Below, one piece after another: positions 2,838 through 51,027 of a stretch of DNA of 64,000 bases. The position numbers were made by a program, and so were the translations under genes. The first letter of the stretch is position 1; each line of letters starts with the position of its first letter. The notes beneath the pieces are model-generated. The model did no database searches. It saw only the letters and a list, made by a program, of their open reading frames with translations, and had not been told where the DNA came from. The DNA is taken from NCBI GenBank assembly GCA_965178295.1, contig CBCXTT010000003.1, forward strand, positions 24,114-88,113. The letters run 5' to 3'. The DNA is from Alphaproteobacteria bacterium. GTDB lineage: Bacteria; Pseudomonadota; Alphaproteobacteria; UBA7879.

Positions 2838-2851
2838 ACGGAGATCTAGTC

Positions 2852-3568
2852 GTGTGGTATATTGGGCATAGTGTGTCGGGAAAGAAAAGAGCACCAGGCA
2901 CTTGTCAAGATGTGTTAAGAGTCATGACCTGTGACCAACAAGTGGTTGCGGTATTATCTGACGGCGCAGGGAGCGCGGCACATGGTGGATTGGGTGCAAA
3001 AGTTGTAGTGCAGGCGGCTTTCTCATTCCTTCTAGGCCAAAAAATGCCAGGCCTACCATTGTGTGAGATGGCCGATGACTTGATTGCGCATGTCCGACAG
3101 ATCTTAATGGAAAACGCACGCAGTGTTCAAGTGCCAATATATGCACTTGATGCAACAATCCTCGTCCTTGTGGCAAGTCCGTTTGGCTATCAGGTGTTGC
3201 AAGTCGGGGATGGATTTATTGTGATTCAAAGTCAGGGAGAGATTGAGCGCATTGGAGCACCGCAAAAGGGTGAATATGCTAATGAGACCGTTTTTATTAC
3301 AGAAGATGGTGCGCAACCTGCGCTTTATGATAGTAAAGTGCCCGTACACTACTGGGCAATATCTAGCGATGGTCTGGAGCCAGTTGCAATTGAGGCAAGC
3401 GCTGGAACACCCCATGCGGCTTTCTTTCGACCGTTTTGGGAGTATTTAGACACAACGCCCGATATTGAGGAGGCAAACCAGGAGTTGCATAGATTTTTAA
3501 CATCCAGCCCTCTTCAGTCACGGATCCACGATGATGTATCTCTAGCGATAGGACATTGGCATGCATAA
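2852..3568 (+). CDS. PP2C-family Ser/Thr protein phosphatase (PppA/TagG-like)
   Basis: AVLSDGAGSAAHGGLGAKVV and VGDGFIV motifs typical of bacterial PP2C (SpoIIE-like) phosphatases. GTG start 15 nt after the vWA stop. The 3' end overlaps the next gene by 8 nt. Confidence 0.8.
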   Translation: MWYIGHSVSGKKRAPGTCQDVLRVMTCDQQVVAVLSDGAGSAAHGGLGAKVVVQAAFSFLLGQKMPGLPLCEMADDLIAHVRQILMENARSVQVPIYALDATILVLVASPFGYQVLQVGDGFIVIQSQGEIERIGAPQKGEYANETVFITEDGAQPALYDSKVPVHYWAISSDGLEPVAIEASAGTPHAAFFRPFWEYLDTTPDIEEANQELHRFLTSSPLQSRIHDDVSLAIGHWHA

Positions 3569-6353
3569 GGTATATAAAGCATCGGGTAGTGCTATTGTGC
3601 TCAAGGCAATTCTTGCGCGTGGAGGCGAAGGAGAAATTTGGCAGACGGATAACCCAGACGTTGTAACAAAGATATATCATGCGCAAGAGGCGATGCCGCT
3701 GGAGAAACTGGAGACCATGATTGCATCACCCCCCCATGATCCAACAATGGAGGCTCATCATGTCTCGATCTCATGGCCGCAGGAAGTGATATATGATGTG
3801 AATCAAGTGCCCATTGGTTTTTTGATGCCACGTGTGTCTGGCTCTCTAACGCTCAGCAACATTTACAACCCTAAGTTGCGACGGAACAAGGCGCCTGGGT
3901 TTAATTTTTATTACCTGCATACAGCGGCCCATAATATTGCGGCGATTATGGATTCTCTGCATGCACGTGGATATGTTCTGGGCGATGTTACGACAGAAAA
4001 CTTTCTTGTAAATGATCGGGCTTTGTGCGCCCTAAGCGATACTGATTCTATGCAAGTTCCGCATGGTAATAAAGTCTTTCGGTGTACAGTGGGATCCGAA
4101 GGCTTTACCCCACCAGAGCTTATCGGACAAGATTTTTATGCAATTGATCGAACGGCATATCACGACCGCTTTGGTTTGGCTATTCTTATACATCTTCTGC
4201 TTTTGGGCAGACATCCCTTTACGGGAACATGGCCTGCAGGGGAGGAACCCCTGTCTCTGGATCAGGCGATTAAAAATGGAATATGGCCTTATGCTACGGG
4301 AAAGAGACTGCAACCATCCATGCTTTCTGTTTCGTTAGATGTGATAGCGCCTCCGTTAAAAGCAGCATTCTTGAGCGCATTTAATGGAGAACCGGAATTG
4401 CGACCGACAGCGGCTGATTGGAAAAAGGTTCTGAGTGCTGCACGGGATGATTTGAGCGCTTGCGCGAAAAATAGCAATCATTATTACGATCACCATTTGA
4501 ATACATGCCCTTGGTGCGCGAGAGCGGAGGAAATGGGCCTTGATATTTATTCTGCTGTTTCAAATGACGTCATTGAGCACAAGGTGCGCTTTAACAAAGC
4601 TGTAAAAACAGACGATCAACGCTTGATGACACAATTATGGCAAGCGCATGAAACACTTCGTGCAGATGCTGCGTATCTGAATTTACGCGGGAGAATGCAA
4701 AAAATTGATAGAGATGTTCGGCTTTTGGATCGATTTAAAGCAGCTTGTCAGGAAGGCGTAGACGATGCAGCGCTGTTCCAGATGATTGCAGATAATCCTC
4801 GTCTTGAGACGCTCTCTGCATTTCTCCATGAAAAAATAAATGGGCAATCATTGGCTGTATTTTTTCAACAGCTTGATGCTCGCCGGAAGGCAATCGTGCG
4901 TGCTCAAGATGCAATTCGCCTAGCTGATCAATATTTTTCAGCAGTCTCTGCAACGCCGGCTCATGAGCAAGCCATCATTGATACTTCTAGGGCGTTAGAA
5001 GATATTCTGGAGACGCAAGGGCGTGCTGTTCCAGGTAATATGAGCGCGCGCTGGGCTATAGCTAAACAGCGCTTAGAATCGTGGAGAATATTTCAGCATG
5101 CACTGGATAAAAATGATTTCACGCTGCATAAAACATGGGTCGTACACGCAGAAAAACTCAAAGGTTTTCTGTTTCCAGATGACGTTCGCATGCACTTAGA
5201 GCAGGTGCAAAAACAAGATAAAATTCATGCAATATTTATGTCTCAGATTCGCAAGCAACCTTATGAAGATGCAGCTTTGATTGCGCTATGGGCCCAATAT
5301 CCCGCATTTCAAAAGACAATCTTTGCAAAAGAAAAGGTGTTTCGCGATAGATCTATTGAAGATTTTGTGTCGGATGCACAGAAACGACAGTTTCTGCTGC
5401 CTCTTTTAGATCACGCTTATGCGACATCTGATGTACACGGTATTTTGAATGCCTGGGATAAAAATGTGTGCGGGTATCATCCAGACTTCAAAAAATTTAA
5501 AAGCTATGCAGAAAAGTCTTTTGATGCTCAAAAGCGCTGGCATAAAGTACGGCGCTACATCTTAGAAGATGATCATGTGCAGATTGTGACGTTGTGGCAT
5601 GATAGTTTTACTACTCAGGCTATGCGAGAAGGATTGGGGCATAAGGTGCGTAATAGCTTTCGCCATCAAGAAACGCGCCGTTCCTCTTTTTCGTCTATGT
5701 ATTTTCCAAGAATGCGATTGCTTGAAAATTATATAGATGTATTGTTTCCCTGGCCTGTTTTGATCGATAGAACAGAAAAACGTGTGCGCACATCCTATGT
5801 TGTGGGCGTGGCTCAATCAACGTATGCAACCCCAGATCTAGAGAGGTGCAAGAGTGCGCTGAATATGCGTTATATATCGGCGGATAAATGTGGAGAAATT
5901 GGCCGATTAATATTACCTAGAACAATGCCAAAACCCCATATATTTATATGGGCGGCAGATTTTACAGCAGGGGGGGTGAGGCCTATAGGTTCTCACTTAT
6001 ATGTAACACACAATCAGAACTTGCCAACGATATCATATGATATTTTCGTTCAATCCTTTTGGAAAAGGGGCCGTACAACCATTGGCGTGCATATAGATGT
6101 AAATCAGGATATGCATTTACCATCGTTAGACGTTGTTGCAACGCATGGTCGCTTCCCTATTTTTCAGGATCCAGAAGCCATTGTTCTTGCTACTCTGCCA
6201 CCGTGTTGTTTAAAGATGGGGGGGCGTCACAAGATTATGATTTCCTCGAAACATCCGATCGAACGTGATATGATATTTCGCCTACAGTCACAGGAGAAAT
6301 TTTTCATGGACAACGTGACATTCGTTTACAATAGGCCACAGAAATATGCATAA
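3561..6353 (+). CDS. Divergent Hanks-type Ser/Thr protein kinase (PpkA/TagE-like) with ~600-aa C-terminal region of unknown function
   Basis: Recognisable kinase subdomains in the N-terminal ~330 aa: GGEGEIW (G-loop), VTKIY (Lys), HARGYVLGDVTTENFLV (catalytic loop D...N), LSDTDS (DFG-like), GFTPPEL (APE-like), DRFGLAILIHLLLLG. Residues ~330-930 are helical with a CPWC pair and no family I can assign. No TM segment. Overlaps the PP2C stop in an ATGCATAA arrangement. Confidence 0.75.
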   Translation: MHKVYKASGSAIVLKAILARGGEGEIWQTDNPDVVTKIYHAQEAMPLEKLETMIASPPHDPTMEAHHVSISWPQEVIYDVNQVPIGFLMPRVSGSLTLSNIYNPKLRRNKAPGFNFYYLHTAAHNIAAIMDSLHARGYVLGDVTTENFLVNDRALCALSDTDSMQVPHGNKVFRCTVGSEGFTPPELIGQDFYAIDRTAYHDRFGLAILIHLLLLGRHPFTGTWPAGEEPLSLDQAIKNGIWPYATGKRLQPSMLSVSLDVIAPPLKAAFLSAFNGEPELRPTAADWKKVLSAARDDLSACAKNSNHYYDHHLNTCPWCARAEEMGLDIYSAVSNDVIEHKVRFNKAVKTDDQRLMTQLWQAHETLRADAAYLNLRGRMQKIDRDVRLLDRFKAACQEGVDDAALFQMIADNPRLETLSAFLHEKINGQSLAVFFQQLDARRKAIVRAQDAIRLADQYFSAVSATPAHEQAIIDTSRALEDILETQGRAVPGNMSARWAIAKQRLESWRIFQHALDKNDFTLHKTWVVHAEKLKGFLFPDDVRMHLEQVQKQDKIHAIFMSQIRKQPYEDAALIALWAQYPAFQKTIFAKEKVFRDRSIEDFVSDAQKRQFLLPLLDHAYATSDVHGILNAWDKNVCGYHPDFKKFKSYAEKSFDAQKRWHKVRRYILEDDHVQIVTLWHDSFTTQAMREGLGHKVRNSFRHQETRRSSFSSMYFPRMRLLENYIDVLFPWPVLIDRTEKRVRTSYVVGVAQSTYATPDLERCKSALNMRYISADKCGEIGRLILPRTMPKPHIFIWAADFTAGGVRPIGSHLYVTHNQNLPTISYDIFVQSFWKRGRTTIGVHIDVNQDMHLPSLDVVATHGRFPIFQDPEAIVLATLPPCCLKMGGRHKIMISSKHPIERDMIFRLQSQEKFFMDNVTFVYNRPQKYA

Positions 6354-7362
6354 TATATTTTCTAAATCATTGTGTCCGTACTGCTACAAGTCTTTTTATC
6401 CGTGGGAAAAAATGTATCGATGTCAGGCCCTGACGCAGGTATGCAAGCCTGTTGAAGATACAGTATATCATCGTCATTTTGGTACAAAAAAAATCATGGG
6501 GCATGTTGTGACACCTTCTATTCGAGGGTTTTCTGATTTGATGCGCTTTTTAAGCAAGGAGTTGGCAACACGTTGTACGAGCTGTGCATCTTTGGTGACA
6601 CAACCAATTTGTCCAGGGTGTCATGGGCATTTGCCTAAGCGACAAGGTAAGACACCTGTCGTACCTATTTTGCTTGCAGGAGCCAGTATTAGCGCTCTTA
6701 AAACGTATCGTTCAGCGCTTCTGCATCAACTCCAGGCGGCTGAAGGGCATATAGCTGGTATGATTGTTGAAGATTTAGCTGAGGGTGACGGCATTATTAT
6801 CTCTTTTGAGATTGCTCAAGGGCGGCGGACCAGGCTACCATGTTTTATCTCCACATTTCCGATGGTAACATGGAAGGACTTGGCGCGTCTCCCTCGTGCG
6901 TTTGATATAAACAAGTTATCTGGTGTGATCGCGGTATTGTCTGGAAAGGCGCTAGGTGATATAGGTCATCAGTATGCGATGACAAGCCTAAAGGCGTTAC
7001 TGGATGTGGCGGATGAGGAAAGAAGCTTTTGGCAGAAAACGCCACTTGCTATTGCCCTAGATGACATGGAAAAGTGGCAGGCTTGTGTTCCTGGCGGGAG
7101 TGTGCTGTGGGGGCGAGGTCAACATACCAAAGGGTATGACGTACAAGATGGATCCAGCGTTTCTGCTGAAGTGCGTGCCTGTTTTGGCTATTGGGCTGGG
7201 TTAAATGTACTGCAGTTTTTAAAGAAAAATTTTAAAACTTATAGTTTTTTTGGTATTTCAAAAGAGCGATATAGTACGGGCCGTGTTGCGCCTTATGCTC
7301 GTGTTGAGGATCCTTATTTTTGGCTGCTCTATCGGCAAAAAATACTTGAAAAAATGCTTTAG
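6346..7362 (+). CDS. Cys-rich double zinc-ribbon protein of unknown function (338 aa)
   Basis: N-terminus has CPYC...(~10 aa)...C...C and then C..C...CPGC, i.e. two zinc-ribbon-like Cys4 clusters in the first ~95 aa. The remainder is unassignable. Start overlaps the kinase stop by 8 nt (ATGCATAA), implying translational coupling. Confidence 0.6.
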   Translation: MHNIFSKSLCPYCYKSFYPWEKMYRCQALTQVCKPVEDTVYHRHFGTKKIMGHVVTPSIRGFSDLMRFLSKELATRCTSCASLVTQPICPGCHGHLPKRQGKTPVVPILLAGASISALKTYRSALLHQLQAAEGHIAGMIVEDLAEGDGIIISFEIAQGRRTRLPCFISTFPMVTWKDLARLPRAFDINKLSGVIAVLSGKALGDIGHQYAMTSLKALLDVADEERSFWQKTPLAIALDDMEKWQACVPGGSVLWGRGQHTKGYDVQDGSSVSAEVRACFGYWAGLNVLQFLKKNFKTYSFFGISKERYSTGRVAPYARVEDPYFWLLYRQKILEKML

Positions 7363-14138: not shown

Positions 14139-15362
14139 ATAGGTCCTGTTTGAACGGGTGACTCGTTAGACGTTTGTCTCCATCTAACATACAGTAATTA
14201 AAATCTCTTCCTAGAGCTTTACTTCAATCACATTTTGCAATATTTTTCTCTATATTGCGCAACAGATTCTCTGTCCATTGTGTCTTTTGTTCACCCAATC
14301 TATCCGTCGGGATGAATGATAATAACACTGTAGCATATGTTGCGTTATCTGCAACTTTTGCAATAGGGGGAGCATGAATCTCTTTTTCAGTATTTCTGGC
14401 GCAGGCGATGCAAGAATCATCATATGATTATAGGTGATAGATTTTATCTCTGCACCTGGTTTCTAGCAACTATGCTAGAATTTTTTTTGATACATATTAC
14501 ACAAAGGGGATATTTTTTCTAGACACCATACGTACGCTACGTGCGCTCAGTTGTCAGGACATTTTTTCAGAGGGGCGTGATACCAGGATCGTGGTCAGTA
14601 TACTGATAGTGTGTCCACATACTCCGCATAACCGGCGCGCACTTATATGCAAAGTTATCGAAGGTATCTGACTACGCTGTCTGTGATAGGTGCTATGAAT
14701 AGGACCGCATGTTTGCAGATACCCATTCTGTTTTTTTTGGCGTATCGCATAATGTAGTTACAAAATAAACATGAGATTATCACTGTTTTTTCCCTGTTGA
14801 CGCCCATCAATGCACTTGCAGTGTATGCCTGACCGAAAGTTAAGCAATGTTTGACAAAAGGCAAAGTGGTATTATTTCTGGTTTACAGCACATATTTGTG
14901 TGATAGTACCTGACTAGACTATATGGAGACTCTTCGGCGAACAATCCCTTGCGTTTGTGCACAGGCTCAGATGCAAATCAGTTGATTGTTTGTGAAACAA
15001 TGAATAAATCCCATGAGGATAGCATCTGTATATTGGAACGCAGGGAGAAAGATGGGGGGATGTCTTGAGAACGGGTGTATGCACCCCCGGGCCTTGGAGC
15101 GGTGAGTATGGCGCATATCTTTTATGCCTCATACGGCAATCAGGAGGGAGAAGCACCACGTGCGAAGAAATTTTGATACCCAAGATCCCCTGCATCATTG
15201 CCTATACTAGGTATAGATATTCTGTGTTTCTCCATTCTATTATATGGATATAAATTGATTGTTATTTTCCTGGAATTTCATTAATAATTGTAGCATTAAT
15301 GAGGAGATTGCATGAAGAATCTCCACTGTTCCCATATTTGCAAGAAGGTTTTGATATAACTT

Positions 15363-16778
15363 ATGACGAAGAGATATATAACTATATTTTCTGTATTTTT
15401 GTTAGGAGGTATTCTATGGCATATACCCCATCCAGAGGCGTTAACAGATAGGGCGTGGCATTTATTTATTGTGTTTTTTATGACGCTTTCTTGTGTTATT
15501 TTACGTCCCGTGCCTATGAGCGTGACCGCTCTTACCGCGATTGCAGTGTGCACTTTGTCAGGTATCATGCCTCTGTCCAATGCGCTTGATAGTTATAGCA
15601 CCCCAGTGGTATGGCTAGTTTTTTGCGCATTTTTAATCGCGCGCGGACTTAGCGTAACAGGTTTAGGGACACGTCTTGCCTACTTCTTTATGCGTTTATG
15701 TGGTCAAAGTGTCGTCGGTATGGGGTATGGTTTTGTGTTGACAGATCTTGTTCTGGCTCCTGCAATACCGAGTAATACTGCCCGTGGCGCAGGCCTTATT
15801 TTTCCTGTACTGCAGTCACTTGTTGCAGAATTTAAGAACAAATTTAATACGTCGATGCAGCACAAAAAATTTGGTGCGTACTTGGCTACTGTCTCTTTTC
15901 ATGGCAACCTTGTCACATCTAGCATGTTTCTAACAGCAGTTGCAGCCAATCCACTTTCGGCCGCATTAGCACAATCTGCAGACGTGGATATAACGTGGGG
16001 TATTTGGGCCTTGGCCGCTAGTGTTCCAGGTGTTGTGTGTCTTGCAGCTGTGCCCCTTCTTTTGTATACAGTGCATCGCCCAGAACTACCGTTGGGTGAG
16101 GATGCGCGTGTATTCGCTATGCAGTGCTTAGAAGACATGGGACCCATGACACGCAAAGAGTGGATTATGGCCGCGACATTCATGGGATTGCTTGTGTTAT
16201 GGGTTGGTGGTGCCTTTTTTAGTGTGAGCGCCGCTGCTTCAGCTATTCTGGGCATTGTGATTTTACTCTGGACAAATGTGTTGACGTGGGAAGATGTTTT
16301 GTCAGAGCACGCAGCCTGGAACACCTTCATTTGGTTTGGAGCGCTTTTAATGTTGGCGACTGAGTTGCAAAAATCAGGATTTGTGGCATGGTTTGGGGAC
16401 CAAATGCTTTTAGCGATGCAGGCATTTTCTTGGAAGCAAACATTCTTGGTTGGTGCGGCTACTTATTGCTTAGTACAGTATTTTTATGCAGGCATTACAG
16501 CACTTGTAAGTTCCTTGTATGCTATTTTTCTTCAAGTGATGATTATGACGGGAGTGCCACCATTTTTGGCTGCAATGATGTTATGTGCGCAAAGCTCTCT
16601 TGTGGCGGGTGTTACCCATTATGGTACGGGCTCTTCTCCTGTGTTTTATGGCGCTCGTTATGTGTCCATGGCACAATGGTGGAGAATTGGTGGAGGAATG
16701 GCTTTATTTTATCTGACTATATTTTGTTTTATTGGAGGCGCTTGGTGGTTTTTTCTTGGGTTGTGGGATTGGCCATAA
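15363..16778 (+). CDS. DASS-family (SLC13-like) anion/dicarboxylate transporter
   Basis: 471 aa polytopic membrane protein with the DASS signature PSNTARGAG and a repeated-domain architecture. Confidence 0.85.
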   Translation: MTKRYITIFSVFLLGGILWHIPHPEALTDRAWHLFIVFFMTLSCVILRPVPMSVTALTAIAVCTLSGIMPLSNALDSYSTPVVWLVFCAFLIARGLSVTGLGTRLAYFFMRLCGQSVVGMGYGFVLTDLVLAPAIPSNTARGAGLIFPVLQSLVAEFKNKFNTSMQHKKFGAYLATVSFHGNLVTSSMFLTAVAANPLSAALAQSADVDITWGIWALAASVPGVVCLAAVPLLLYTVHRPELPLGEDARVFAMQCLEDMGPMTRKEWIMAATFMGLLVLWVGGAFFSVSAAASAILGIVILLWTNVLTWEDVLSEHAAWNTFIWFGALLMLATELQKSGFVAWFGDQMLLAMQAFSWKQTFLVGAATYCLVQYFYAGITALVSSLYAIFLQVMIMTGVPPFLAAMMLCAQSSLVAGVTHYGTGSSPVFYGARYVSMAQWWRIGGGMALFYLTIFCFIGGAWWFFLGLWDWP

Positions 16779-17743
16779 TTATATATTAGCACATACGCCA
16801 ACAAGACCGATAAGGGCTTTGAGTATTGCGTTATGGAGTGTTGCACTAAACTTATTGGAGCTATTTTTGTACCGCAAAATTTTTTTCAGGATAATACAGG
16901 TGTATACCTTACGCTTGACTTGTCCACCCTGTTTTTTTGTTCATGAGTCTTGCTGTATTGTTTAGATGTGGTCCTTTAATATCTAAGAGGGTGACAAAAT
17001 CTAAGACGCACTTTTACCCATACACTGAGTAGGAGTACTATATTGCCCGCAGTGCAAGAGAGACGTGTAGAACGCGTGAGATAACTGAAAAAGTTCGAGT
17101 AATCTAGTAGGCACATCGTGCCTATTGCTGCAAGGCGTCTTATCCCTAGATGCCTACCTCTAGCGCTTTGTCATCATACATCCTTTTTATGCTACAACTG
17201 TGCACACGTTGCTAGAATGTAAGTTAGGACCCGGTCCTTTGGTGACCCAAGAGCAATCATGCTGCACAGGGTGAGCGATATAGGAATTGTGAGTTAGCAT
17301 GCATTTCTTAAGGTACGCCTTGTCTTTTTAAAAATTCTGGCAGATATCATAACGTGTGGAAATCCCATGTGTTCGTTCCTTTATAAAGTAGTAGATCCCT
17401 CTTTTCCCCAGTCTCCTGCTGATCATTCAACTGAGCCAAAAAGTGTTCCCGTGATGTTCAAGTGACGTTTTGAAATATTATTCCAGCCTAGTGTACAAGA
17501 CGTCGTCCAGGGAAACGACTAATAAAAAATGCAGGAGGGATTTGCGCATGAATCTGCTTCAGCGTGCAATGTTCAAAATGCATTGCATCAGTACAATACT
17601 GCCCCCCGATACGCCGCGCCCTCAAATCTATACACTTTTCTCACTACTGTAGGAGATTTTCGCGCTCAACGGTACGCAAGTTATATCGAAGGCATTCCAT
17701 CCTAGACTTCTTGGTCTATTTTCGATAAAATTCTCTAAAGTTT

Positions 17744-19926: not shown

Positions 19927-22246
19927 AACATTAATCCTTATATTCACGAACACATGTATACATATATGTCTATTACTTGACGATATTTGTCAAGATTGAG
20001 TTGAGAAGAGTTATATGCAATTGAGTCAGTCTACCTGCCTAGGATATTAGTCTACAGAATAAGAAATGCACTCTATGAATTCATGGAAGAGTTTCTTGTG
20101 AGGAATGCATTCCTACTTCTTTTGCGCTTGATCGTCTCAATCCTTTTTTGGTCTTTGGCAGAACAGAAAAAACTTCTATAGAGTGACAGTGTCACAAAAG
20201 TGCTAATATTCTTAGTGTGTATATGTCATTCCGCGCGTTATAAGTGATTTGGCGCACGAAACGCTAAAAATAACAATTAGCTTGTGATTTTTTGAAGAGG
20301 AAATACGTGCAACGTATCTGTTAATAATGGATTATGTTCATTACATCTTGTAAGGAATCGTTTGTGGCTGAGCAATAGAAAAAGCACCGAAGAACATGAA
20401 AAATGGACGCCTCACTGGAATCGAAATCGCAGCATAGACACCTTCAAGAGACAGAGTAGAAAGGAAATTTAATAAAACTTTACAATTGTGATGATAGTGT
20501 CATGGCCGACAACAGGAGAGGGGGGAGGAGAGGTGCGGGTCACTCAGGAAAAGCTTTGGACAGCGAATATAAGGGGAATCTGTACACACATTACATAGCC
20601 TGAGCTCGACACTCAATAGATTCATTCATTTGGTTTCGCTGCACCTGAGGCGCTAACGTCAGTAGGCACAAATTTAAGCGCAACGATAAGAAGAACACAC
20701 CTTCATCAGATAGTAGGATTGTGCAGTGAGCCTCCCCACTTTTGAGTGTCATCATAACGCAATCAGCAATTAAACAATATATGCGTAGCCTCGTATTACT
20801 GAGATCAAGTAACACCATAAGCAGATTTCTGTAGATGCAGGGTGAATCCTTAAAAAGTTGTCTGCGGGATCAAGAAATTATAATGCTCCTTAGAGAGAGT
20901 GTAAGCACAGTCTAATATCTTCACGTGTCTTACAATCCGCTTGAACCACTTTCCACTAAAGAAGAATATCTTGGTCAGAAGGAATTCTTTAAAACATTGC
21001 TTCTCCCTACATTCCTAGCATTAAAAAACCCAATATCTGTTTACAATCCTAACCCCCCCTTGTGCATTGGACGCGCACGGCCACTGTACATCCCCATGAT
21101 GAGATTTGTGTGGTATCAAAATGCGTAGACACTTCTTGTGTACATATGCTGCACGCATTTATATGCAACAGAAAGTTGTGAGCATGCCCGTGAATATACC
21201 TATTATTCTACTACCGTAGAGGAATGTGTCAGAACCTCATCTTTTGTTGGAGAGATGATATATAAATTAGTTCATAGGTTTTCTTGCTCTCTGTGCTTCA
21301 TGCCAGCACAATAAAAAGTCTTTATCTCAAAACGTGGTGCTATGTGAATGCATAAAAATCATCGGGAAAGTACGCAAAGCAATAAGCATATTCTATATGT
21401 CACGCGCACATGGAGCGCAAGTATTATTATTCACGGTAACGCGTTGCTACCTGCAAAATATCACACAATTTTCCACGCCCTACTTTTATTGTCCGTCAGA
21501 TGCAACAGTCTTGAGAGATACACTGATATGTAAGTTAAAAAACATGAGCCGCATGTATACACTAAACACACGCACCTATTGCAGGCGTGGAGCGGGCGGC
21601 GTTTGTGCAATGTGCACCTGAACTGGGCAGAAGTGAATGGAGGGATGCGTCGTACACTGCGCAACGCATTATACAGCCCGCCCTTTCTCCGATCATCACT
21701 AGGCCCGCATTGGATGACCATATGAAATTGCGCAAGAAGTACAACGGCATTTTCTGTCACGAGACAAGGATGTAGAGCATTCAAAATCGAGCGTTCATCA
21801 GATCGACGTTTGGTGACAGCATAACATTGATGTATCAGGAAACGACCCAGGAGTAGGCAGGGAAAAACATATATTGCCATTATGGGGTGAGGACTCTAAT
21901 AATGATTCGGGAATTTATGGTCATGTATTTGAGTATTAGTGCAGAGCGTTTCTCGGTCGCAAATTTCTAGGTAGCATATAAGTAAAAAAGTAAAATGTAT
22001 GGTGTATTTAGTTCTTATGATTGATATAACGTTGTGATATATTGTAATGAACATGAAGGTTATGCGTAGTACTCTCTGCTCGAATTTTTCTTCTATTGCA
22101 TAGAATCGTTTGTACCAGTAGATGAGTGAGATGGATGTTTGGAATCAAGCGATCATGCATGGACTTACTGTTTCCCTGCCCCTGGTAGATTGTTTTATGG
22201 ACAAACACCTGTTACTATACACCCATAATAATATGGAGGCTACAGC

Positions 22247-22786: not shown

Positions 22787-23730
22787 CTAGAACGCTCGGA
22801 TTGAGTACACACCTGGAATGTCAGAGAAGAATTCCAGCACTGTGCCCTGAAGGAGAGGGGGGTGCTGGTGTTGAAAGTGCTCCTCCCAGTGCAGTCGCCC
22901 TCTTTTTCTTTTGGTGTAGCAACAGACTTATCCAGAGTGTGTTGTCGAATCAATCTATTTATTGTTCATGTCACACAAACATAAGCCCACCTGCGTTTAC
23001 AATAGAGTCCGGCGGCATACACTGAAACAACTCAGTAGTTGGCGGTTATGTCATGATAATGATCTTGTGAACAGATATTACTCACATTGAGAAGAGACCG
23101 CATTATTGTGCCGAGTGCATACGGAGCATAATTTTCCGCTTTTCTTTTGTATAGGTTACGCTTTCTGAAAGCGGTGTGGCATTAATCATCCTAAGGTAGG
23201 AGGATTGCGGGGGGCACAGTGCATATGCTGTTGATATTGCACGAGGCTTTTTAAAACAAGGGGGGAGAGAGGGATTACTGAGCCCCACGATGTTGTTGGG
23301 TGCGGTGTTTGGTGAGTAAGGTGGTATATCGTCTGCATTCACACCAACTCTTCAGCTATCGCACATCAGTCATCTACGCTATTCATAAACCACCCGATCT
23401 CATAGAACATTTCTTCTGTTTTTTTATACATCCCGTGGATTTGTCAAGACACTCATTTTCCACCATCTGGGTCTAGCTAGGGTTGAGAGAGTGGATTGAT
23501 ATGTTATATTAAAAGGGAAGGGGTCGCGAGCAAACTCATACACAGCTTCTGATTCTATGTGGGTACAAAATCCCTTATAAACGACATCCATCAAGAAGCG
23601 GGGGGGGGGGCTAGTCTATGTTGTGAATGGCAGGAATTTTCTTTCGATCTAGTTTGGGATCACAGAAACAAGCACTGCTTCGTACCGACCAACATCATGA
23701 GTTCTAAGCTATACTCATGAATCGCTCCTA

Positions 23731-24795
23731 TTAGACCGTCATCTGTTTAAGAGACAGCATGTGCGCCCCACCGCGCCCCTTTTTTTTCGCAGTAAGCACA
23801 GGCCTAATAGTGCGATGCAAGCGCTTTAATCGCACCATGGCGGTCGTTAAAGAGCTCCGTGCATCTTCTGTCAGATCAGGATGTGTAAGCATGTCATTTA
23901 AAAACAGAAATACTTTCTTATATCTATCGTCCATATTTTCTAAGAGCACCTCAGTAAACTTATTGCTTGCGATTATTTGTGAAAATTTTCCTTCAATGTA
24001 GGTGTTAGGCACTAAGTCAAGCAAGCTCAAAAATTCATTAACCGCTAGCTTCTGCACAAAGTAAAGGCTTGCGCGCTCCTTGTCCCAATCTTTTAACAGC
24101 GCAGTCATTCCTGCATCGCCTGTTATGGAAAGGGCCTCAATTTTCTTAAGACGTTCAAATACCTCGGGTGGTTCAGTGTCCTTTGATGCCCCTGTTTCTG
24201 CAATTTTTATAATTTTTCGCATGCGTGGCAAATATTTTGTTTTCACATCACGTGTGAGGGTTTTAGGCGAGTCTGGATGAGCCAGTATTTGGGCGAGAAA
24301 CATTGCAATACCTCTATATGTACCAACATTCTTTGCAAGTATTGCAGTGGGCAGACCGGCTATTTGACGTGCGTCAACGGCGTCCAGAATCGCCTTAATT
24401 TGCCAAGCAGTATGTTGCTCTATTTCTTCTCGCTGCTTGATGATTTTATCAATAGCTTCCCGTGCCGCTTGCTCTGTCCTGGGTTTGTCTGTTACATAGA
24501 TATGTCCATGTTGTTTTTGGGTTATGTGATGCGTTCTTCCCTCTTGGAGACCCCTTTGTTGTGCAGCCTGTTTGCGTGCCTCTTTTTTTTGTTTACGCTG
24601 CTTGCTTATTGCGCGCGTGGTTTCCGATACCATCTGCTGAGATTTTTTTGAGGTGTGAACCGACTGTGTAGTGCTCTCGGGCTGGGTTGCGCTCGTGACT
24701 GGAGAGGATATTCTTCCTTCATTTTTATGTGCTACGGCAGTAGCAATCCAAGCAATACAGGAAAGCGCTACAACATACAATTTTACAAAGCTCAC
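23731..24795 (-). CDS. Hypothetical secreted protein (354 aa) with Lys/Gln-rich low-complexity region
   Basis: Signal peptide MSFVKLYVVALSCIAWIATAVAHK, followed by KQRKQKKEARKQAAQQ low complexity and a helical C-terminal region. No family recognised. Confidence 0.55.
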   Translation of the reverse strand: MSFVKLYVVALSCIAWIATAVAHKNEGRISSPVTSATQPESTTQSVHTSKKSQQMVSETTRAISKQRKQKKEARKQAAQQRGLQEGRTHHITQKQHGHIYVTDKPRTEQAAREAIDKIIKQREEIEQHTAWQIKAILDAVDARQIAGLPTAILAKNVGTYRGIAMFLAQILAHPDSPKTLTRDVKTKYLPRMRKIIKIAETGASKDTEPPEVFERLKKIEALSITGDAGMTALLKDWDKERASLYFVQKLAVNEFLSLLDLVPNTYIEGKFSQIIASNKFTEVLLENMDDRYKKVFLFLNDMLTHPDLTEDARSSLTTAMVRLKRLHRTIRPVLTAKKKGRGGAHMLSLKQMTV

Positions 24796-25284: not shown

Positions 25285-26511
25285 GTGTCTACCCTAAAAT
25301 CTATCATTGCGCCTCTAATAAGCATGCTCTTCTGTATGATGGCAAATGGTTTTTTTGCAACGCTTATGGGCGTTCGAATCAAAGAGCTTGGCCTGAGTAA
25401 TATGATGATTGGCCTTATAACAGCGTCTTTCTATGCGGGCATAATACTGGGTTCTTTTAAAGTAGAACGTTTTATTAAACACGTGGGCTACATTAGAGCC
25501 TATATGGGCTACGCAGCAGTGTGTACACTTTTTACGCTCCTGCAAGGCTTTTACCTCGAAGATCCTTGGACATCTGTTGTGATGAGATTTTTTGTGGGGT
25601 ATTGCATTGGTGGATTTTTTATCACATTAGAGGGTTGGGCCATGTGCGTTACGACCACAAAGAACCGTGGGCTTATTATGGCGTTAATGATGATCACGCT
25701 GTATTTAGGTTATTCACTTGGACAATTTTTTATTGCACTCGACATGTCCAATGATCTTGCTGCGTTTAATATTGTAGCGCTTCTTTTAGTGCTGTCTCTG
25801 TTGCCGATGGTTGTGACACGGAGTACGGCGCCAGCAATTAAAGACACTTCGCTTTTAGGGCTTGAAACTCTTTATAAAGCCTCGCCCACGGGTGTGATCG
25901 GGTGCTTCTTAGTGGGGTGTTTAACAGCAACCATTTATGGGATGTTTCCTGTCTTATTTAAGGCACTATCCTACAGTAGCTTTGATATTTCCCTTGCGAT
26001 GTTTTTAGTTGTGTTTGGAGGGATGTTTGGGCAGTATCCATTAGGAAAAATGTCAGATCGTGTAGGGCGTCGACCTATACTTTTGTGGGGCAGTGTTGCA
26101 GCATTAGTACTTTTATTGCTTATTATCCTGCTATATAAATCTTTGAGCGCGCCTCTCCTTGGCCTATTTTTTTTATTTGGCTTTTTCTGTTACCCCATGT
26201 ATCCACTGGTTTTAGCCCATACGTGCGATGTTGTGCAGCCCAAAGATTTTACAGCCGCTATGCAGAGATTGATTTTAGTCTTTGGCACAGGATCTGCTAT
26301 AGCGCCCATTTTTTCTGCAATTATGCTGGATATTTTTGGGAATTTAGGTATTTTATTGACAGTTTTAAACATTTTATTGGCCATGATTACCCTTTTCATT
26401 TGGCGTCACAATATAGACTCACAGATTGCAGTTGATGACCAAAGGAAATTTGAAGGCGTGTTAAGCCCGATGCCGATTACAGGCATTAAGCGCTTTAAAA
26501 ATAAGCGATGA
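25285..26511 (+). CDS. Major facilitator superfamily transporter
   Basis: 408 aa, ~12 TM segments. MFS motif GKMSDRVGRRPILL between TM halves. GTG start directly after GGAGGTGAT. Confidence 0.85.
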   Translation: MSTLKSIIAPLISMLFCMMANGFFATLMGVRIKELGLSNMMIGLITASFYAGIILGSFKVERFIKHVGYIRAYMGYAAVCTLFTLLQGFYLEDPWTSVVMRFFVGYCIGGFFITLEGWAMCVTTTKNRGLIMALMMITLYLGYSLGQFFIALDMSNDLAAFNIVALLLVLSLLPMVVTRSTAPAIKDTSLLGLETLYKASPTGVIGCFLVGCLTATIYGMFPVLFKALSYSSFDISLAMFLVVFGGMFGQYPLGKMSDRVGRRPILLWGSVAALVLLLLIILLYKSLSAPLLGLFFLFGFFCYPMYPLVLAHTCDVVQPKDFTAAMQRLILVFGTGSAIAPIFSAIMLDIFGNLGILLTVLNILLAMITLFIWRHNIDSQIAVDDQRKFEGVLSPMPITGIKRFKNKR

Positions 26512-26939
26512 CCGCTCCCTTACACGCGCGACTATCAGCACTTCTTTTGCTTATGGAAAAATTAGATGCGTGATCTCAATGGATTGCTGTGATGATTTCT
26601 ATCCCCTCCCTGTTTTTTTTGACAAGCATGGGCAGTCGAAGGATATGGAGAATATACGCCTTTTATCCTTTTTGATTCATTCTTATGCTCGCACAGATGG
26701 AGATCCATGTTCTACATAGCTCGCGCGCATATGATTTCTCATGACTTGCATTTTCTATGCATATAAAAAGAGTATGTGAGTTGGCTATTTGATGTATTGA
26801 TCTCTACTAAACAATCCCTCAAAAAACCGGCTGTGGTGCGTGAGGAATAACGCAGAGGCCAATATTTGGGAGTGAATTGATCCTGATCGTTAATAGAGTG
26901 TGTGTGACATCAATATGTGGGATGCTCATAATTGAGCAC

Positions 26940-29030
26940 TTTTAGTGTATCGACGTTTATTGAGTTGATACGGGGGGTAGTAAGTTAAGAATAATAGCTA
27001 TAACGCCTATTAGGAAGAGCGAGAAAAATTCTTCTCCTGTTATGTGTGATGGTCATGGCCCTGTTTCTTTACCGGTTTTGAAAAGGCAACATCCATATAT
27101 TCTTCGCGCTCTTTTTGAACCCTTTTGTCTTCCAGGCGCACGTTTTGGAACTGGAGTGGTATTTTATTGCATCCTCTGCATCGTTTAATCCTGTTGCTGG
27201 CGCGATATAGAGGTACCTGCTCTTATAGAATTCAAAGCATGCGACTCATTATCCAAACACCTATTTTGTATAGGCGCGTGACGTATATCATGGACCGGAC
27301 TGTTTTCAATTGTACTGCTGCAATTTGAGCCACAACCCCTTTCTTGCAGAGCGATATAAAATAGCCATAGTCTCCTTGGTCACTGGATTAGGAATGTTAA
27401 GTTGTACGCTGCTCAAGGAATTAAAATGAAAAGGTCATCATAGCCACATGGCGCATCAAAGACCTTTATCGCTGAATCTACAAATGCATAAACCGCAACT
27501 TACCTATCTACTTACCTACCTATTATGTATTTTTACACCGTATGACATGGGGGTGTGTATCGTTCATTCGGGATTTTGGTGTTTTGTTGGTTGTGCGTGC
27601 TACTGGAGGATGTAATGCTCATAAATATGCTGCATACAATATTTTGGCGCTCTTGTGCTACAGTAGACTGCACAGGACATGATATTGTGCATACACTTAC
27701 CAAACAATCTATCAAACAACAGATTTAGTTCTTTATTGAGCATTGCGCCCTTGATTTAAGTATGGATAAAGATTGCGTATGTCGCGGTTGGGTAGTACGT
27801 GGAATCTTGAAGACGGTATCTTGCAATCCATTGCGTTCAAGAACACCCAGTCGTTCTAAAAACATGGGGGAGTATGATGTGGTATGGACGCGCCTGTTTA
27901 TACTGTATATACATGCAAGGGAGATGGAAATGCTATGCTTTTGCGGTCAGGACTTTTGCTTCAGGGCTGCGAATGTATGCAATTTCACCTATCTGGAATT
28001 TATGGGTTTGGATGGTTGATTTCAGAAGGTGCGCGTGGCAAGGAAGAGGGTATACCTTCACCAACTCTTAAGGCGAACGGTTTATGGCGTGATATGGACC
28101 ATCTGCCAACGGTCTAGCATATCGAGATGTCATGAGTCGTGCTATGGCAATTGAAATGCAAGAAGGACGAGATTTTTGGCCTGGAAAAGATCATATCCTG
28201 GTTACATCGTGCGTATCTCTCCCCAACGTTGTTGGAAGAGCAGGTTACCTGGTATTTCTGAAAAAGCTAAAATTTTGCAGGCGCTGCTGTAGCGCGTGAA
28301 CCAATCCCTTGTGTTGCCAATATTGTATTATAACATGTGGGGTGTGCCAATAAACTCTCATGGAGAGAAGTGCTGAATCCAGAAAAATTAGATATAGAGG
28401 CATTGGTTCCGAGTTTACTGGAAATTGGAGAAACTGCATGTGTGCCTATTCATGGAGCGAATCGCGTGGGTGTAAACTCTTGAGTTGATCTTGTGGTTTT
28501 GGGCGTGCCGTGGGCTATGGCTGCAAAGGCAATCCACATGACATCTCTATGGGGGTGTCACAACACCCAGAGTTGACCCCCGATGCAATGGTTAACACGC
28601 CATACACAGACTAGATATAATGTGGTACTCAAAGGGTGCAGAAAGTGTTCATGATATCCGCTTTTCCATGCACAAGGTTATGCCGCAGAATTGTGCTGTT
28701 TTTAGAGATGCGTATATGCTCCAGAAAGAGTGCGAAGAACTTGCGAAAGTCCTTGCACGTATGAAACGCGTGCACGGAATACGGATCTGGTGGAAGTCCT
28801 CGATCTTGAGAATTTGATGGTGCAGTCGTTGGTGACGATACATAGCGCGCTTGGAAATTCGTGGCGTTCATGCCCACGCAGATTGCAGAGTAGCGATGAC
28901 GAGCATTAGCTAACGCATACATAACATGGATTGATGCGGCAGGAAACGTAAGTCGACCCGTGCCATTCAAAAAGGCCGGTACTTTCCAGGATTTGAGCGC
29001 ACGATAAACATTATAAAAGGTGCATATATA
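26940..29030 (+). pseudogene. sdhA: Succinate dehydrogenase flavoprotein subunit (sdhA) relic, broken by frameshifts and stops
   Basis: SdhA-like pieces spread across frames: VDTGGSKLRIIAI (cf. VGAGGAGLRAA), LPVLKRQHPY (cf. LSKVFPTRSHT), ELEWY (cf. NWEWHMY), DCTGHDIVHTL (cf. DRTGHALLHTL), RDVMSRAMAIEMQEGRDFWPGKDHI (cf. RDVVSRAMTIEIREGRG..KDHI), ILYYNMWGVP (cf. TVHYNMGGIP). Only ORFs <=152 aa are present. Confidence 0.65.
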
Positions 29031-29032
29031 AG

Positions 29033-29760
29033 TTGCATATATATCGTTACGACTCAGTCTTAGGAGACAATCCACTATTGGATACATATGAAGTCGACCG
29101 CGATATGTGCGGTCTTATGATGTTGGATCTTGTCATAAAAATCAAAAATGAGATTGATCCAACGTTAACGTTTTGGTCGGCTCATGTCGTGAGGGGATTT
29201 TCGGTAGTTGTGCTATGAATATCGATGGTATTAATATTTTAGTCTGCATTACTCCTATAGAAAGCCTTCAAGGAGGAGGTTAAGATTTATCCCTTGTCAC
29301 ACTACCATAATATGCCCATCATGAAGTACTTGGTTCTGGACTTGACCTTGACCCTGGCCTTATGTGCAATATGCCTCTATGCAGCCGTGGTTAAGAAGTA
29401 ATACATTATCCTGCCGGAGATCGTTCAAGCCTTCAAAGCCCAGAAGAACGGCAAAAATAGGATAGTCTTTGGGAGGGGGGTGCATTTTACGTTTCGCCTG
29501 TTTTACAAGTTGTCCTAATTACTGGTGGAGTGGTGGTGGATATTTAGCCCCGCACCATTTTTCTTCAGTCCTGTCGTTGACTGCAAGATCCATGTGCTGA
29601 TCATACGGGGGAGTGCTTAGATGCATTGGAAGATTCTTTTAACTATACCATATGTCATACGATTATGCACTGTACAAAAACATGTCCGTAAGGGTTGAAT
29701 CCCGCACAAGCTATCTTAGAGACAAAAAATGCTCGCGGAACGACACTAGTCCTGTTTGTA
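29033..29760 (+). pseudogene. sdhB: Succinate dehydrogenase iron-sulfur subunit (sdhB) relic with frameshifts
   Basis: [46 protein letters not shown] (cf. [43 protein letters not shown]), then stop. [16 protein letters not shown] in another frame. CPNYWWSGGGYLAP (cf. CPSYWWNGDRYLGP). [23 protein letters not shown] (cf. [23 protein letters not shown]). Confidence 0.7.
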
Positions 29761-32294
29761 AAAATTCTTCTAGTGGAAGCATGCCATGCTCTATTCCAGA
29801 AATTTTTTGGATTAGTCTTTAAGATGCTCATGCGTGCGTTCTTGACCCATTCTTCTGAGAGTGTTGGTCGAGGAAAATATCACTAGATGGATCCTGTGAT
29901 CATAACCCAAAATATGCCCGAAGAAACATGCATGCTCTCACGTTTTTATGCAAGAAACCCAAAAAACTTTATATATGATTAGGCGTCAAGCAGGCTAGAC
30001 GATATTCATTGAGCAGTTTGCTGATCACATGACGCGCTCGCTTTTTGATATTTTTCTTGTTCAACATGTTAGGGCGGTGCGATGTTACTCAAGTGTCTTG
30101 TTGAAAGGATAGTATGTCGCAAAGGTTTTGATAGTGACAACAATCACATACTAATTGTGCCCGATTTTTTCCACGTTGAAAAAAGATGCGCCCCCTTTTT
30201 AATTGGTGTGCAGTACAAGCGTGGTGCACACCAATATCGCCGTTCTGGTGGGGCAGGTGCGAGAAAACGGTTGATTTGAGTGCATGCTGCTCTTAAATCG
30301 CATAAGAAATATGGAAGTCATGCATGTCTTGCTAAAGTAAGGGGGGTCGGAATATCTTATACGTAAAAGAGCAGGCTATTGTTGCGCTCATTTAAGATCG
30401 ATGTGCCACATAGACTGCCCGGTACAGAGAAAGGGGTTTAAGACATAGTTGATTCTGGATGTATAGATGGTGACGGTAGGTCAGAATCGATGCCATTTCA
30501 AGTGCTGATATTAATGTTGTGCATAACAAGAATTTTATCCTATATATGAATATGTCTGTATATATGCATACGGAGATATATGGCAGCTCATGCGCATTCA
30601 TACTGTTATTGACAGGTGTTTACAAGATAAGCACATTATATCCTTACAATGCGGGCACGTCGTCTTCTGGGTACGTTAAGGCAATGAAGCAATGAAACAA
30701 GGATGAGTGGCGCGATATTAATGCCATGCATTCCATGCTTGATGATGTTTAGAAGTGCATGCAAGGTATGTAGATAGGGCCATTATTATGTGGTCTGAGT
30801 ATGCTGAGAGGGGCCGCTCCCAACGTGAAAAAAGAGCGTTATACAGTTGAAATGGATCCGTGTTTTTTGCAAAAAACGCTCTGTTGGATAGGACATGTGC
30901 CGCTGGTGTCGCCCTCTTTTGACTTCAAGACGCTCCCTGCTAAGGTGGTAATGTTGTTGGTGGGATTTTGTATGAGCGTGCGTCTTTAGCAGCATTCATG
31001 CAATTTAGATGTGGATGCGAGACTGGAACTCCCTATTCCTGCCTAATAGTAAGGACAAGTGCATGATGGTATTCTAGGGAAGAATCAGAGAGCATATCGT
31101 TGACAATGTTCTGTGTTGTATTTTCGGCTTTTTTTGAGATGTTTCATTGCTTCAGACCTTTGGTGATATTTGGTGCGGGAAGTGGGAAGAAGAATGGAGC
31201 GCAAGCATCTTTATTGCAGAAGTGAATAGAATTATGTCTGTTCGAATCCATTAAACATTTTAGTCAAATATAGTATGAAATTTGGGTGCGTATTACAGCA
31301 GTCCACTGAGGGTGGAATATGCAGTTTCTTGTCTATCAGCGTTTTGCATCATTTTTTGGAAAACATGATGCAGCTTTTAGAAAAATTTCTATGATTGTCT
31401 CATACCTTCTTTATGTGTTGCAATGAAAACGTTTTTGATAGCCAGTGGTGTATGGGTTGAATACAACACGTATTACTGCTGCACATTGCCTTCGATAGGC
31501 GGATTCTTGGTAAGGTGATTCAATGTGGCGATCACACTGCAGAACGTAATAGAATTGTTGCTGAGTATTAGCGATGTATGTGGAACTTGATAGAGATGGC
31601 CTACTGGGTGCTGGACAAAATAGGAAACCAAAAAAAGAACAGCGTACTGTTGATGGCGGTGAGATGTATTATGCTGCCGATGTAAAACTACCCTTGTCTT
31701 TTACGTATAAGCGAGTGTGCGGGCTGTCATATGCATGAATACGATGTAATTTATTTATGCATAATGTTGAGCCATTCGTGCTATATGTGAACAAGGTGCT
31801 CTCCCCCTTCTAGACTCTACAAGTTTGAAATGAGCAACAGACTACGCGCGATGTTTGTGCAAGATTATTCAACATGAGCAGACGTATACCGATTGTTAGA
31901 GCCTCAATATCGAAGAAGAACGGTATTAGCTTCAATGATTTCTGTGTATCGCATAGATTGTCTTCCAGTGTTGAGACCAACGTGTGTATCAATCTCTAAA
32001 GCGTAATCTATTCAAACAATGATCAGTATCGGTGCTATGTATCGTTCTATTGCCAACGATATAGGCTCGTAGATTAATCATTGAGAACATGCGAGCACTT
32101 TATGGACCAAATTCATAGAAGAGGTCGCCCTGTCATCGCTGTCCTACAATACCAGAAAGAAACCTTATATACATATAGCGGTGAAGGGTTTTCTGTTTTT
32201 CCTAGAAAAGTGTTTTTGATACGATATATGAGGTGCGCGTAGCATTTTTTTTGATGCGTGCATTTTTGGTGCATAAAAAACATAAAAACAGTTC

Positions 32295-32323
32295 TTGACG
32301 AACAGTCGATGACAGCATAATAT
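32295..32323 (+). promoter_or_regulatory. Putative sigma70 promoter of the str/ribosomal operon (TTGACG-17 nt-TAATAT)
   Basis: TTGACG at 32295-32300, a 17-nt spacer, TAATAT at 32318-32323. ~80 nt upstream of the rpsL ATG (RBS AAGGA at 32388-32392). Confidence 0.5.
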
Positions 32324-32400
32324 GCAGCTCACAACTAATGTTATTGAGAGCTCCTGTCCCGTGTGGGATAAGAACTTATTTGGGTAAAAAGGACCGGATT

Positions 32401-33257
<857 letters not shown>

Positions 33258-50231: not shown

Positions 50232-51027
50232 GGCCTCTTTTGAAGAAAAGATCAATTAAAGATATTGCTTCACTAGTAAACGTGCCTATATTTTTTCGTG
50301 CGCAGAGAGGAAGTCTTGAGGAGAAGTTTTTCTCTTTTTTTACTGTTCGATAAAGCGTGCCCATGCTTTTTTTATGTTCAAGGGGGTGTGTGCATGGACA
50401 TACACGATGATGGGTGATTCCCGGTTAAGAGCGTTGAAAAAAGTATGGGGTGGATTTTCTCTTAAGGCATTTTTTCTCAGCCATAAAGGTGTAGCTGTAT
50501 TCTGCGTCTAAGGCGCTAACACGATGCTATGTACAAAAATATCAATCGATCGCATAGGCTTTATCTCGTTCTCTCGCGGCGTAGATATAAGAAACATTAC
50601 CTGATTATATTCTTGAATTTACACAAGTGATACTTAGACACGGGATTGTCATTCAAGTGATCAAGGTCCCCAATCGATTCATTGAAGAGCATTCATCGAG
50701 CGTAATCGCAATTAGAAGTCAACCATTTTGTTGAATACGCTGACCTATACCACTACACGGGTACGGCGAGTAGTTTTGGGTTGCTTGATGCGGTTAGAAT
50801 GTATCCGAATACCATACAAGAAGCGCACGAGGGTGTGCGCGGAGCGTACTGTATGGGGGCTTCCTGGCTCTTTAAGGATGCATGCGGGAGCTTATGTGCT
50901 GAAAGAGAGTAAGATTGTCTTAAGCACATCTTGCAATACCACGACATGTGGGAAGTAAAAGTTATATAGGGTTGCGCATGTGCTATGGTAGTTTTAGTGC
51001 ACAGGAGATAAAAGGAGTTTTTGCATT

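Follow-up and report, generated by a model that had tools for sequence, protein, structure and literature searches.

Why does no gene of appreciable length lie directly upstream of rpsL in an alphaproteobacterial contig whose neighboring genes are intact? In the stretch of DNA analysed here (64,000 nucleotides of contig CBCXTT010000003.1, from an Alphaproteobacteria bacterium of lineage UBA7879, hereafter the window), the gene-free segment extends from 26512 to 32400, between the stop codon of a gene for a major facilitator superfamily (MFS) transporter (26511) and the true start of rpsL. Its longest open reading frame (ORF) has 152 aa, and the ORF list thus agrees with an earlier sequence-only reading, which had reported no ORF above this length in 26512-32337. 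As listed, the rpsL ORF (from 32338) carries 21 spurious leading codons, and the conserved start MPTINQL lies at 32401; therefore the gap without genes runs to 32400, not to 32337. We conclude with high confidence that this gap holds the remains of an sdhC-sdhA-sdhB-zapE operon, comprising genes of succinate dehydrogenase (complex II) and the AFG1 homologue zapE, which is intact at the same place in a relative and has decayed neutrally in the window.

The relative is represented by Logan contig SRR29340332_32111 (termed L002), an 8.4-kb metagenomic contig assembled from the Sequence Read Archive run SRR29340332. It carries, in order, an MFS gene (409 aa), sdhC (123 aa), sdhD (129 aa), sdhA (594 aa), sdhB (259 aa), the AAA+ ATPase gene AFG1/ZapE (347 aa), two genes of 224 and 232 aa and the beginning of rpsL, all of which are intact. 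The 224-aa and 232-aa genes have the look of outer-membrane β-barrels, with weak matches to OmpA and autotransporters. On the left flank, the MFS proteins of the window and L002 share 75% aa identity over the full length (73% at the nucleotide level, with about one indel). On the right flank, the last 287 bases of L002 (8095-8381) align to window positions 32263-32550, covering the rpsL leader and 5' end, with 78% nucleotide identity, and tblastx extends the leader match back to about 32165. As both flanks match, L002 comes from a related but different species, is syntenic with the window here and keeps the ancestral content of the gap. The rpsL leader itself (32263-32400) is conserved and has survived beside the decayed operon. 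Read against L002, the locus consists of the following features:

25285-26511, plus strand: intact MFS transporter gene (408 aa), the left syntenic anchor.
26512-27447, no strand: spacer of 936 bp, to which no ancestral gene was matched.
27448-27644, plus strand: sdhC relic, start codon and codons 2-60 of 123, by frameshift-aware alignment to L002 SdhC.
27645-27647, plus strand: point at which 996 bp have been deleted, between the last base of SdhC codon 60 (27644) and the first base of SdhA codon 135 (27648).
27648-28962, plus strand: sdhA relic, codons 135-575 of 594, by frameshift-aware alignment to L002 SdhA.
28941-29743, plus strand: sdhB relic, codons 5-258 of 259, by frameshift-aware alignment to L002 SdhB.
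About 29790 to 30142, plus strand: N-terminal relic of zapE/AFG1, approximately codons 40-163 of the 347, spanning the Walker A and Walker B motifs.
30143-32262, no strand: 2.1 kb with weak, partly conflicting signals only, at the position of the 3' half of L002 zapE and the two outer-membrane-like genes.
32263-32400, plus strand: conserved rpsL leader and promoter region, the right syntenic anchor.
32401-32772, plus strand: intact rpsL (123 aa, by ORF translation), with rpsG, fusA, tuf and the operons of ribosomal proteins behind it, likewise intact.

The sdhA and sdhB relics form the core of the locus. Pfam searches with three-frame translations, in which stops were masked, yielded fragments of FAD_binding_2, Succ_DH_flav_C and Fer2_3 (the last with an E-value of 4.4e-6) in the expected order. 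Using tblastn against the window, SdhA and SdhB of E. coli K-12 (from NC_000913) gave E-values of 2e-17 and 6e-19, and their L002 counterparts gave 5e-53 and 2e-38, respectively. For the alignment across frameshifts, we wrote a protein-to-DNA dynamic programme, with shuffled proteins as the control. The sdhA relic, 60% identical to its L002 counterpart, scored 1039, compared to at most 69 for the shuffles; its reading frame is broken by five stops (TAG, TAA, TGA, TGA and TAG) and about 15 frameshifts. The sdhB relic, which is 69% identical to SdhB of L002, scored 757, compared to at most 57, and has three in-frame stops and eight frameshifts. The decayed sdhA and sdhB pseudogenes proposed by the sequence-only reading are thereby borne out: both the tblastn and the frameshift-aware alignments are highly significant, and the latter are colinear, with many changes of frame. 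Of the six peptides quoted in that reading, five occur exactly as quoted, in three different plus-strand frames, namely RDVMSRAMAIEMQEGR (28123-28170), ILYYNMWGVP (28320-28349), HIYRYDS (29036-29056), DPTLTF (29156-29173) and CPNYWW (29511-29528). The peptide quoted as CPKGLNPAQAI reads CP*GLNPAQAI, since the TAA stop codon at 29689 takes the place of the expected lysine.

The lesions also reach the functional motifs. In the sdhA relic, HYNMGG has become YYNMWG and HPSGI has become HLSGI, and a catalytic histidine is replaced. Similarity to SdhA (PF00890 and PF02910) spans the domain that binds flavin adenine dinucleotide (FAD), the capping domain and the C-terminal domain, and no open frame with the N-terminal fold and the covalent-FAD histidine is left. 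In the sdhB relic, cysteines of the first and second Fe-S clusters have been lost (CREGICGSC to CREGIFGSC, and CVLCFSCSTSCP to CILRFACFTSCP), and the motif CPKGLNP is interrupted by the TAA stop mentioned above. Similarity to SdhB (PF13085 Fer2_3 and Fer4) covers the 2Fe-2S and the 4Fe-4S/3Fe-4S domains, and no open frame with a full complement of ligand cysteines is left. Judged from these lesions, a functional product from the locus would be impossible.

Upstream of sdhA, only codons 1-60 of sdhC survive from the two small hydrophobic subunits of the SdhC/SdhD membrane anchor (PF01127). The sdhC relic has its start codon at 27448 and codons 2-60 at 27454-27644, with 57% identity to L002 SdhC and two frameshifts. 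It is backed by a frameshift-aware score of 128 (at most 55 in shuffled proteins), a tblastn E-value of 1.4e-5 with L002 SdhC, and a blastn pairing of L002 1927-1971 with window 27453-27497. Directly behind it, a deletion of 996 bp (L002 2105-3100) has removed sdhC codons 61-123, the whole of sdhD and sdhA codons 1-134, among them those for the dinucleotide fold and for the motif RSHTVAAQGG with the covalent-FAD histidine. No match to SdhD or to the SdhA N-terminus was found anywhere in the window, and a search of 26512-27900 for SdhD, the C-terminal half of SdhC and the N-terminal part of SdhA gave nothing significant. The sequence-only reading had supposed relics of sdhC and sdhD at 26.5-26.9 kb; the sdhC relic instead lies at 27448-27644, and sdhD is fully deleted. 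Two candidate alignments in this region were rejected: residues 103-134 of E. coli SdhA against 27551-27647, as the same DNA fits L002 SdhC better, and an SdhD-like match at 26523-26757, whose score of 57 is not significant compared to shuffles of up to 52.

In the DNA behind sdhB, positions 29716-30142 can be aligned with AFG1 of L002 (score of 106, at most 54 for the shuffles). As the first ~25 aligned codons overlap the end of sdhB and are not credible, we place the zapE relic at about 29790-30142. Its Walker A motif VGRGKT has become VGRGKYH* (the asterisk marks a stop) and its Walker B region FDEFLV has become FDIFLV, in addition to several frameshifts and stops. The stitched relic matches the family profile PF03969 above the cut-off (E-value 1.2e-7, 31.5 bits against a cut-off of 27, profile positions 69-163), a match favored by the stitching, which was guided by the L002 AFG1 protein. 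A position-specific scoring matrix (PSSM) built from 120 AFG1 homologues scored 78 (shuffles at most 54) at 29863-30090, which represents the best-supported core, and nhmmer recovered the N-terminal relic with an E-value of 0.0016. Thus four independent scorings (frameshift-aware, Pfam, PSSM and nhmmer) back the relic. In a segment-wise hidden Markov model search, the AFG1 profile of 120 sequences lacked power, as the stop-free segments are short. Neither an intact Walker A (GxxGxGKT) nor a full-length ORF remains.

As for the gene context of zapE, the intact copy lies at 5279-6322 of L002, 6 bp after sdhB, and a Mesorhizobium locus (L089) has it at 6001-7197, directly upstream of mdh-sucC-sucD-sucA. 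It is not beside genes of the tricarboxylic acid (TCA) cycle in three other alphaproteobacterial loci (L086, L088 and L090). Mitochondrial Afg1/LACE1 has a reported role in the maintenance of respiratory complexes or TCA enzymes. By analogy, bacterial AFG1/ZapE might be tied to the upkeep of such complexes and enzymes, and be dispensable after the loss of complex II, rather than act as a general cell-division factor, a suggestion to which we give little credence. The decay of zapE together with sdh is most simply explained by the polar loss of one transcription unit.

Compared to L002, constraint on the window lineage is clearly relaxed, at a locus whose orthologue is intact at the syntenic position. 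Differences from L002 at second codon positions amount to 0.196 in sdhA and 0.083 in the MFS gene, the reverse of the normal situation, in which Sdh is much more conserved than an MFS protein. Three-taxon branch lengths, with the next-closest operon (L003) as the outgroup, gave 0.45 for the window and 0.06 for L002 in SdhA (7.5-fold), and 0.37 and 0.017 in SdhB (22-fold).

Other features of the gap are unremarkable. Its G+C content (0.40-0.47) and positive GC skew are the same as elsewhere in the window, and neither tRNA nor Rfam families were found within it. The relic region has 12 promoter-like sites, compared to 17.2 ± 4.6 expected from shuffles, which represents no excess. The longest ORF of the gap is antisense (28629-29087) and found no match in a Pfam search; antisense runs without stops of up to 115 codons occur in the intact sdhAB of L002, too.

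Based on these results, we propose the following course of events. The common ancestor of the window organism and L002 would have carried one transcription unit, sdhC-sdhD-sdhA-sdhB-zapE, between the MFS gene and rpsL, which probably also held the two outer-membrane protein genes. In the window lineage, the operon would no longer have been needed or expressed. The 996-bp deletion joined sdhC codon 60 to sdhA codon 135, taking away sdhD, which encodes the membrane anchor with the haem/quinone site, as well as the N-terminal FAD-binding part of SdhA. Nonsense mutations have since arisen in the remainder, along with small indels by the dozen and changes of catalytic residues and Fe-S ligands. A first inactivating event was probably followed by decay of the operon as a whole, and the organism would be without complex II unless another locus supplies it.

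Several points weigh against this picture. About 3 kb (26512-27447 and 30143-32262) fits no ancestral gene, so that the notion of a whole operon is incomplete there. The spacer at 26512-27447 has 936 bp, some 530 bp more than the MFS-sdhC spacer of L002 (403 bp). It shows no similarity to the latter (Smith-Waterman score of 27, compared to a shuffle mean of 30), and has no Pfam match in any frame and no Rfam family. A weak signal of the ZapE C-terminus lies ~1.25 kb off the position colinear with the N-terminal relic, and a weak match to the 224-aa gene partly conflicts with it. In addition, the deletion may have come first or later, and a second sdh or frd locus might exist elsewhere in the genome.

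This last point bears on what the loss means for the organism. If a second locus kept a succinate:quinone oxidoreductase, the decay would reflect redundancy and neither a broken TCA cycle nor host restriction, an explanation that we consider unlikely. The window covers only 64 kb of a contig of at least 306 kb, which leaves room for such a locus. Moreover, erosion is not obviously pervasive, as ORF cover outside the locus reaches at most 84% (counting ORFs of 70 aa or more; for the whole window, at most 77%) and no other gap contains a recognisable relic: six-frame Pfam searches of five further gaps without ORFs, 0.5-1.5 kb long (14139-14913, 16779-17743, 19954-21460, 22787-23730 and 50232-50727) gave none. 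Against redundancy, the window has no further Sdh or Frd match, and the adjacent zapE has decayed as well, unlike what simple redundancy between paralogues would produce. The stitched SdhA relic, used as a query, retrieved 4930 SdhA proteins, the clear best of which is that of L002 (P0001; 52% identity, 412 bits); behind it, alphaproteobacterial SdhA proteins form a continuum at 44-48% identity. No intact SdhA closer than that of L002 was thus returned, even though the database has a protein of the source genome. Loss of complex II from the whole organism, with an incomplete TCA cycle and respiratory chain and host restriction, as the sequence-only reading had put it, is plausible, and genome erosion is demonstrated for the sdh locus only.

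Close relatives are scarce altogether. Besides the proteins of L002, the protein database, in which the source genome is represented by at least the MFS protein P0121 (identical to that of the window), returned no intact close SdhA or ZapE. The window MFS protein has just three homologues above 40% identity among 5.8 billion proteins, one of which is the source itself, and a scan of contigs from genomes with the MFS protein found no relative. Among the matches listed for elongation factor G (EF-G), the best belong to assorted metagenome-assembled genomes of Alphaproteobacteria at 69-75% identity, and the loci fetched from these matches contained no sdhA or zapE homologue. The scarcity of MFS homologues and the EF-G identities of at most 75% among the matches listed indicate that the lineage is isolated.

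The 2.1 kb between the zapE relic and the rpsL leader deserve separate consideration. The sequence-only reading had expected further relics at 29.8-32.3 kb; this is correct for the ZapE/AFG1 relic at ~29790-30142, and the remaining ~2.1 kb matches no gene securely. A possible C-terminal part of ZapE lies at about 31500-31750: the alignment of L002 residues 193-343 to 31500-31946 has a score of 74, compared to at most 58 in 100 shuffles (Gumbel p ~5e-4), and is confirmed by neither Pfam nor the family PSSM. A possible 3' end of the 224-aa gene was indicated by nhmmer (L002 6938-7176 against window 31844-32094, E-value 0.0012), and neither the 224-aa nor the 232-aa protein of L002 gave a significant frameshift-aware match in the window. 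Neither Pfam (both strands) nor tblastn against plasmids gave a hit for the 2.1 kb, and the segment 30240-31440 within it has no counterpart in L002 or elsewhere in the window either.

Part of this region could be a decayed mobile element of ~1.36 kb that is bounded by inverted repeats and inserted in zapE, instead of what is left of the 3' half of zapE or of the outer-membrane genes. Such an element would account for the displacement of the ZapE C-terminal signal, and a perfect 15-nt pair, CTTATACGTAAAAGA, does occur in inverted orientation at 30356-30370 (plus strand) and 31697-31711 (minus strand), 1.34 kb apart. Per window, 0.09 such matches would be expected. The pair extends to 28 nt at 82% identity and is the only repeat that scans for tandem and dispersed repeats revealed. 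Nevertheless, the 15-mer is near-palindromic and might equally represent two copies of a binding site or chance. Moreover, neither strand of the segment encodes a transposase or any other Pfam domain, tblastn found no plasmid match, and there is no second copy in the window or L002. Excision of 30356-31711 improves no alignment, and the putative C-terminal core of ZapE falls inside the very segment that would have been inserted. Altogether, we regard a mobile element as improbable.

The decay might also be an artefact of sequencing or assembly, in which case the genes would be intact in the organism and the frameshifts would be indel errors, for example at homopolymers in long reads. Many of the lesions are indeed indels of 1-2 bp. 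However, in the nucleotide alignment of the sdhA-sdhB relic with L002 (69.9% identity), the 46 indels range from -27 to +12 bp, and only six of them adjoin a homopolymer of at least five bases, leaving 40 that do not, besides the 996-bp deletion. Small deletions slightly exceed insertions, with a net loss of 70 bp over 2.1 kb aligned in addition to that deletion. Furthermore, eight in-frame stops arose by substitution, conserved cysteines and histidines are replaced, and the protein branches of the window are 7-22 times longer than those of L002. On the same contig, the flanking genes are uninterrupted, including those for the 408-aa MFS protein, the 691-aa EF-G and the 1144-aa Mfd, as is the whole ribosomal operon. 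The intact flanking genes, the long Sdh branches and the position of most indels away from homopolymers therefore rule out an artefact, to which we assign a negligible probability. Recoding by stop reassignment, programmed frameshifting or RNA editing, for which nothing speaks beyond the retained overall similarity, is vanishingly improbable and excluded, since TAA, TAG and TGA all stand in frame opposite unrelated residues, while more than 25 frameshifts go in both directions and share no motif, the DNA for sdhD and for the N-terminal FAD-binding part of SdhA is gone, and all neighboring genes read normally with table 11.

Decay of the operon may have consequences for the metabolism of the organism. 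If the genome has no other sdh or frd genes, complex II would be missing and the TCA cycle broken. The window contains an intact gene for a 471-aa transporter of the DASS family, of di/tricarboxylate type, at 15363-16778 on the plus strand (Na_sulph_symp, E-value 1e-129). This transporter could import host dicarboxylates if the cycle were broken at succinate dehydrogenase, and, together with genes of a type VI secretion system (T6SS), would then fit a host-associated lifestyle. For annotation, the relics should be called pseudogenes, and neither "hypothetical proteins" nor split sdh genes, which would help the metabolic reconstruction of this alphaproteobacterium.

Elsewhere in the window, T6SS sheath genes occupy 1-1898 on the minus strand, with tssB/VipA at 1311-1898 (PF05591, E-value 2e-51) and an ORF at 1-1310, running off the start of the window, that reads as TssC/VipB by eye. 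Beside them, at 2175-6353 on the plus strand, a VWA-domain protein, a PP2C phosphatase and a 930-aa protein with a weak protein-kinase match make up a eukaryote-like Ser/Thr signalling trio. At 23731-24795 on the minus strand, an ORF of 354 aa, whose N-terminus resembles a signal peptide and which has a region rich in lysine and glutamine, belongs to no Pfam family and possibly encodes a lineage-specific secreted protein. The window also encodes Mla and Lpt components, NifU, AccA, SpoT, Era, RecO, ParC/GyrA-like proteins, Mfd and the str, S10, spc and alpha ribosomal operons.

Compared to alphaproteobacterial sdhCDAB operons, of which that of L002 is the closest intact one, the window locus has the same gene order and flanks, and its relics retain 57-69% protein identity; the best database matches of the SdhA relic are without exception alphaproteobacterial. 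It differs from L002 in lacking sdhD, the 3' half of sdhC and sdhA codons 1-134, and with eight in-frame stops and about 25 frameshifts no ORF is left. Similarly, the relic of the ZapE/AFG1 family sits exactly where L002 has its intact 347-aa gene, 6 bp past sdhB, whereas it has a broken Walker A, frameshifts and stops, and a C-terminal half that is not securely detectable.

An incomplete or missing TCA cycle and a reduced T6SS have been described in symbionts of the Rickettsiales and Holosporales (PMC9992710). Among them, "Candidatus Hepatincola" (Holosporales) keeps complex II (PMC9992710), so not all symbionts of this kind have lost sdh. By analogy, these reductions would be compatible with a host-restricted window organism, which they do not prove.

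At the level of the locus, the feature is ordinary, well-understood gene decay, as in textbook reductive evolution. Genomes in reductive evolution that have pseudogene-rich regions include those of Rickettsia prowazekii, Mycobacterium leprae and Sodalis. The window differs from these genomes in that the sdh region is its sole recognisable relic. It shares with them a frameshifted, slowly shrinking metabolic operon between intact housekeeping genes, of which ~87% of the ancestral length is kept, and thus presents an operon in mid-decay at base-pair resolution, with an intact syntenic reference available.

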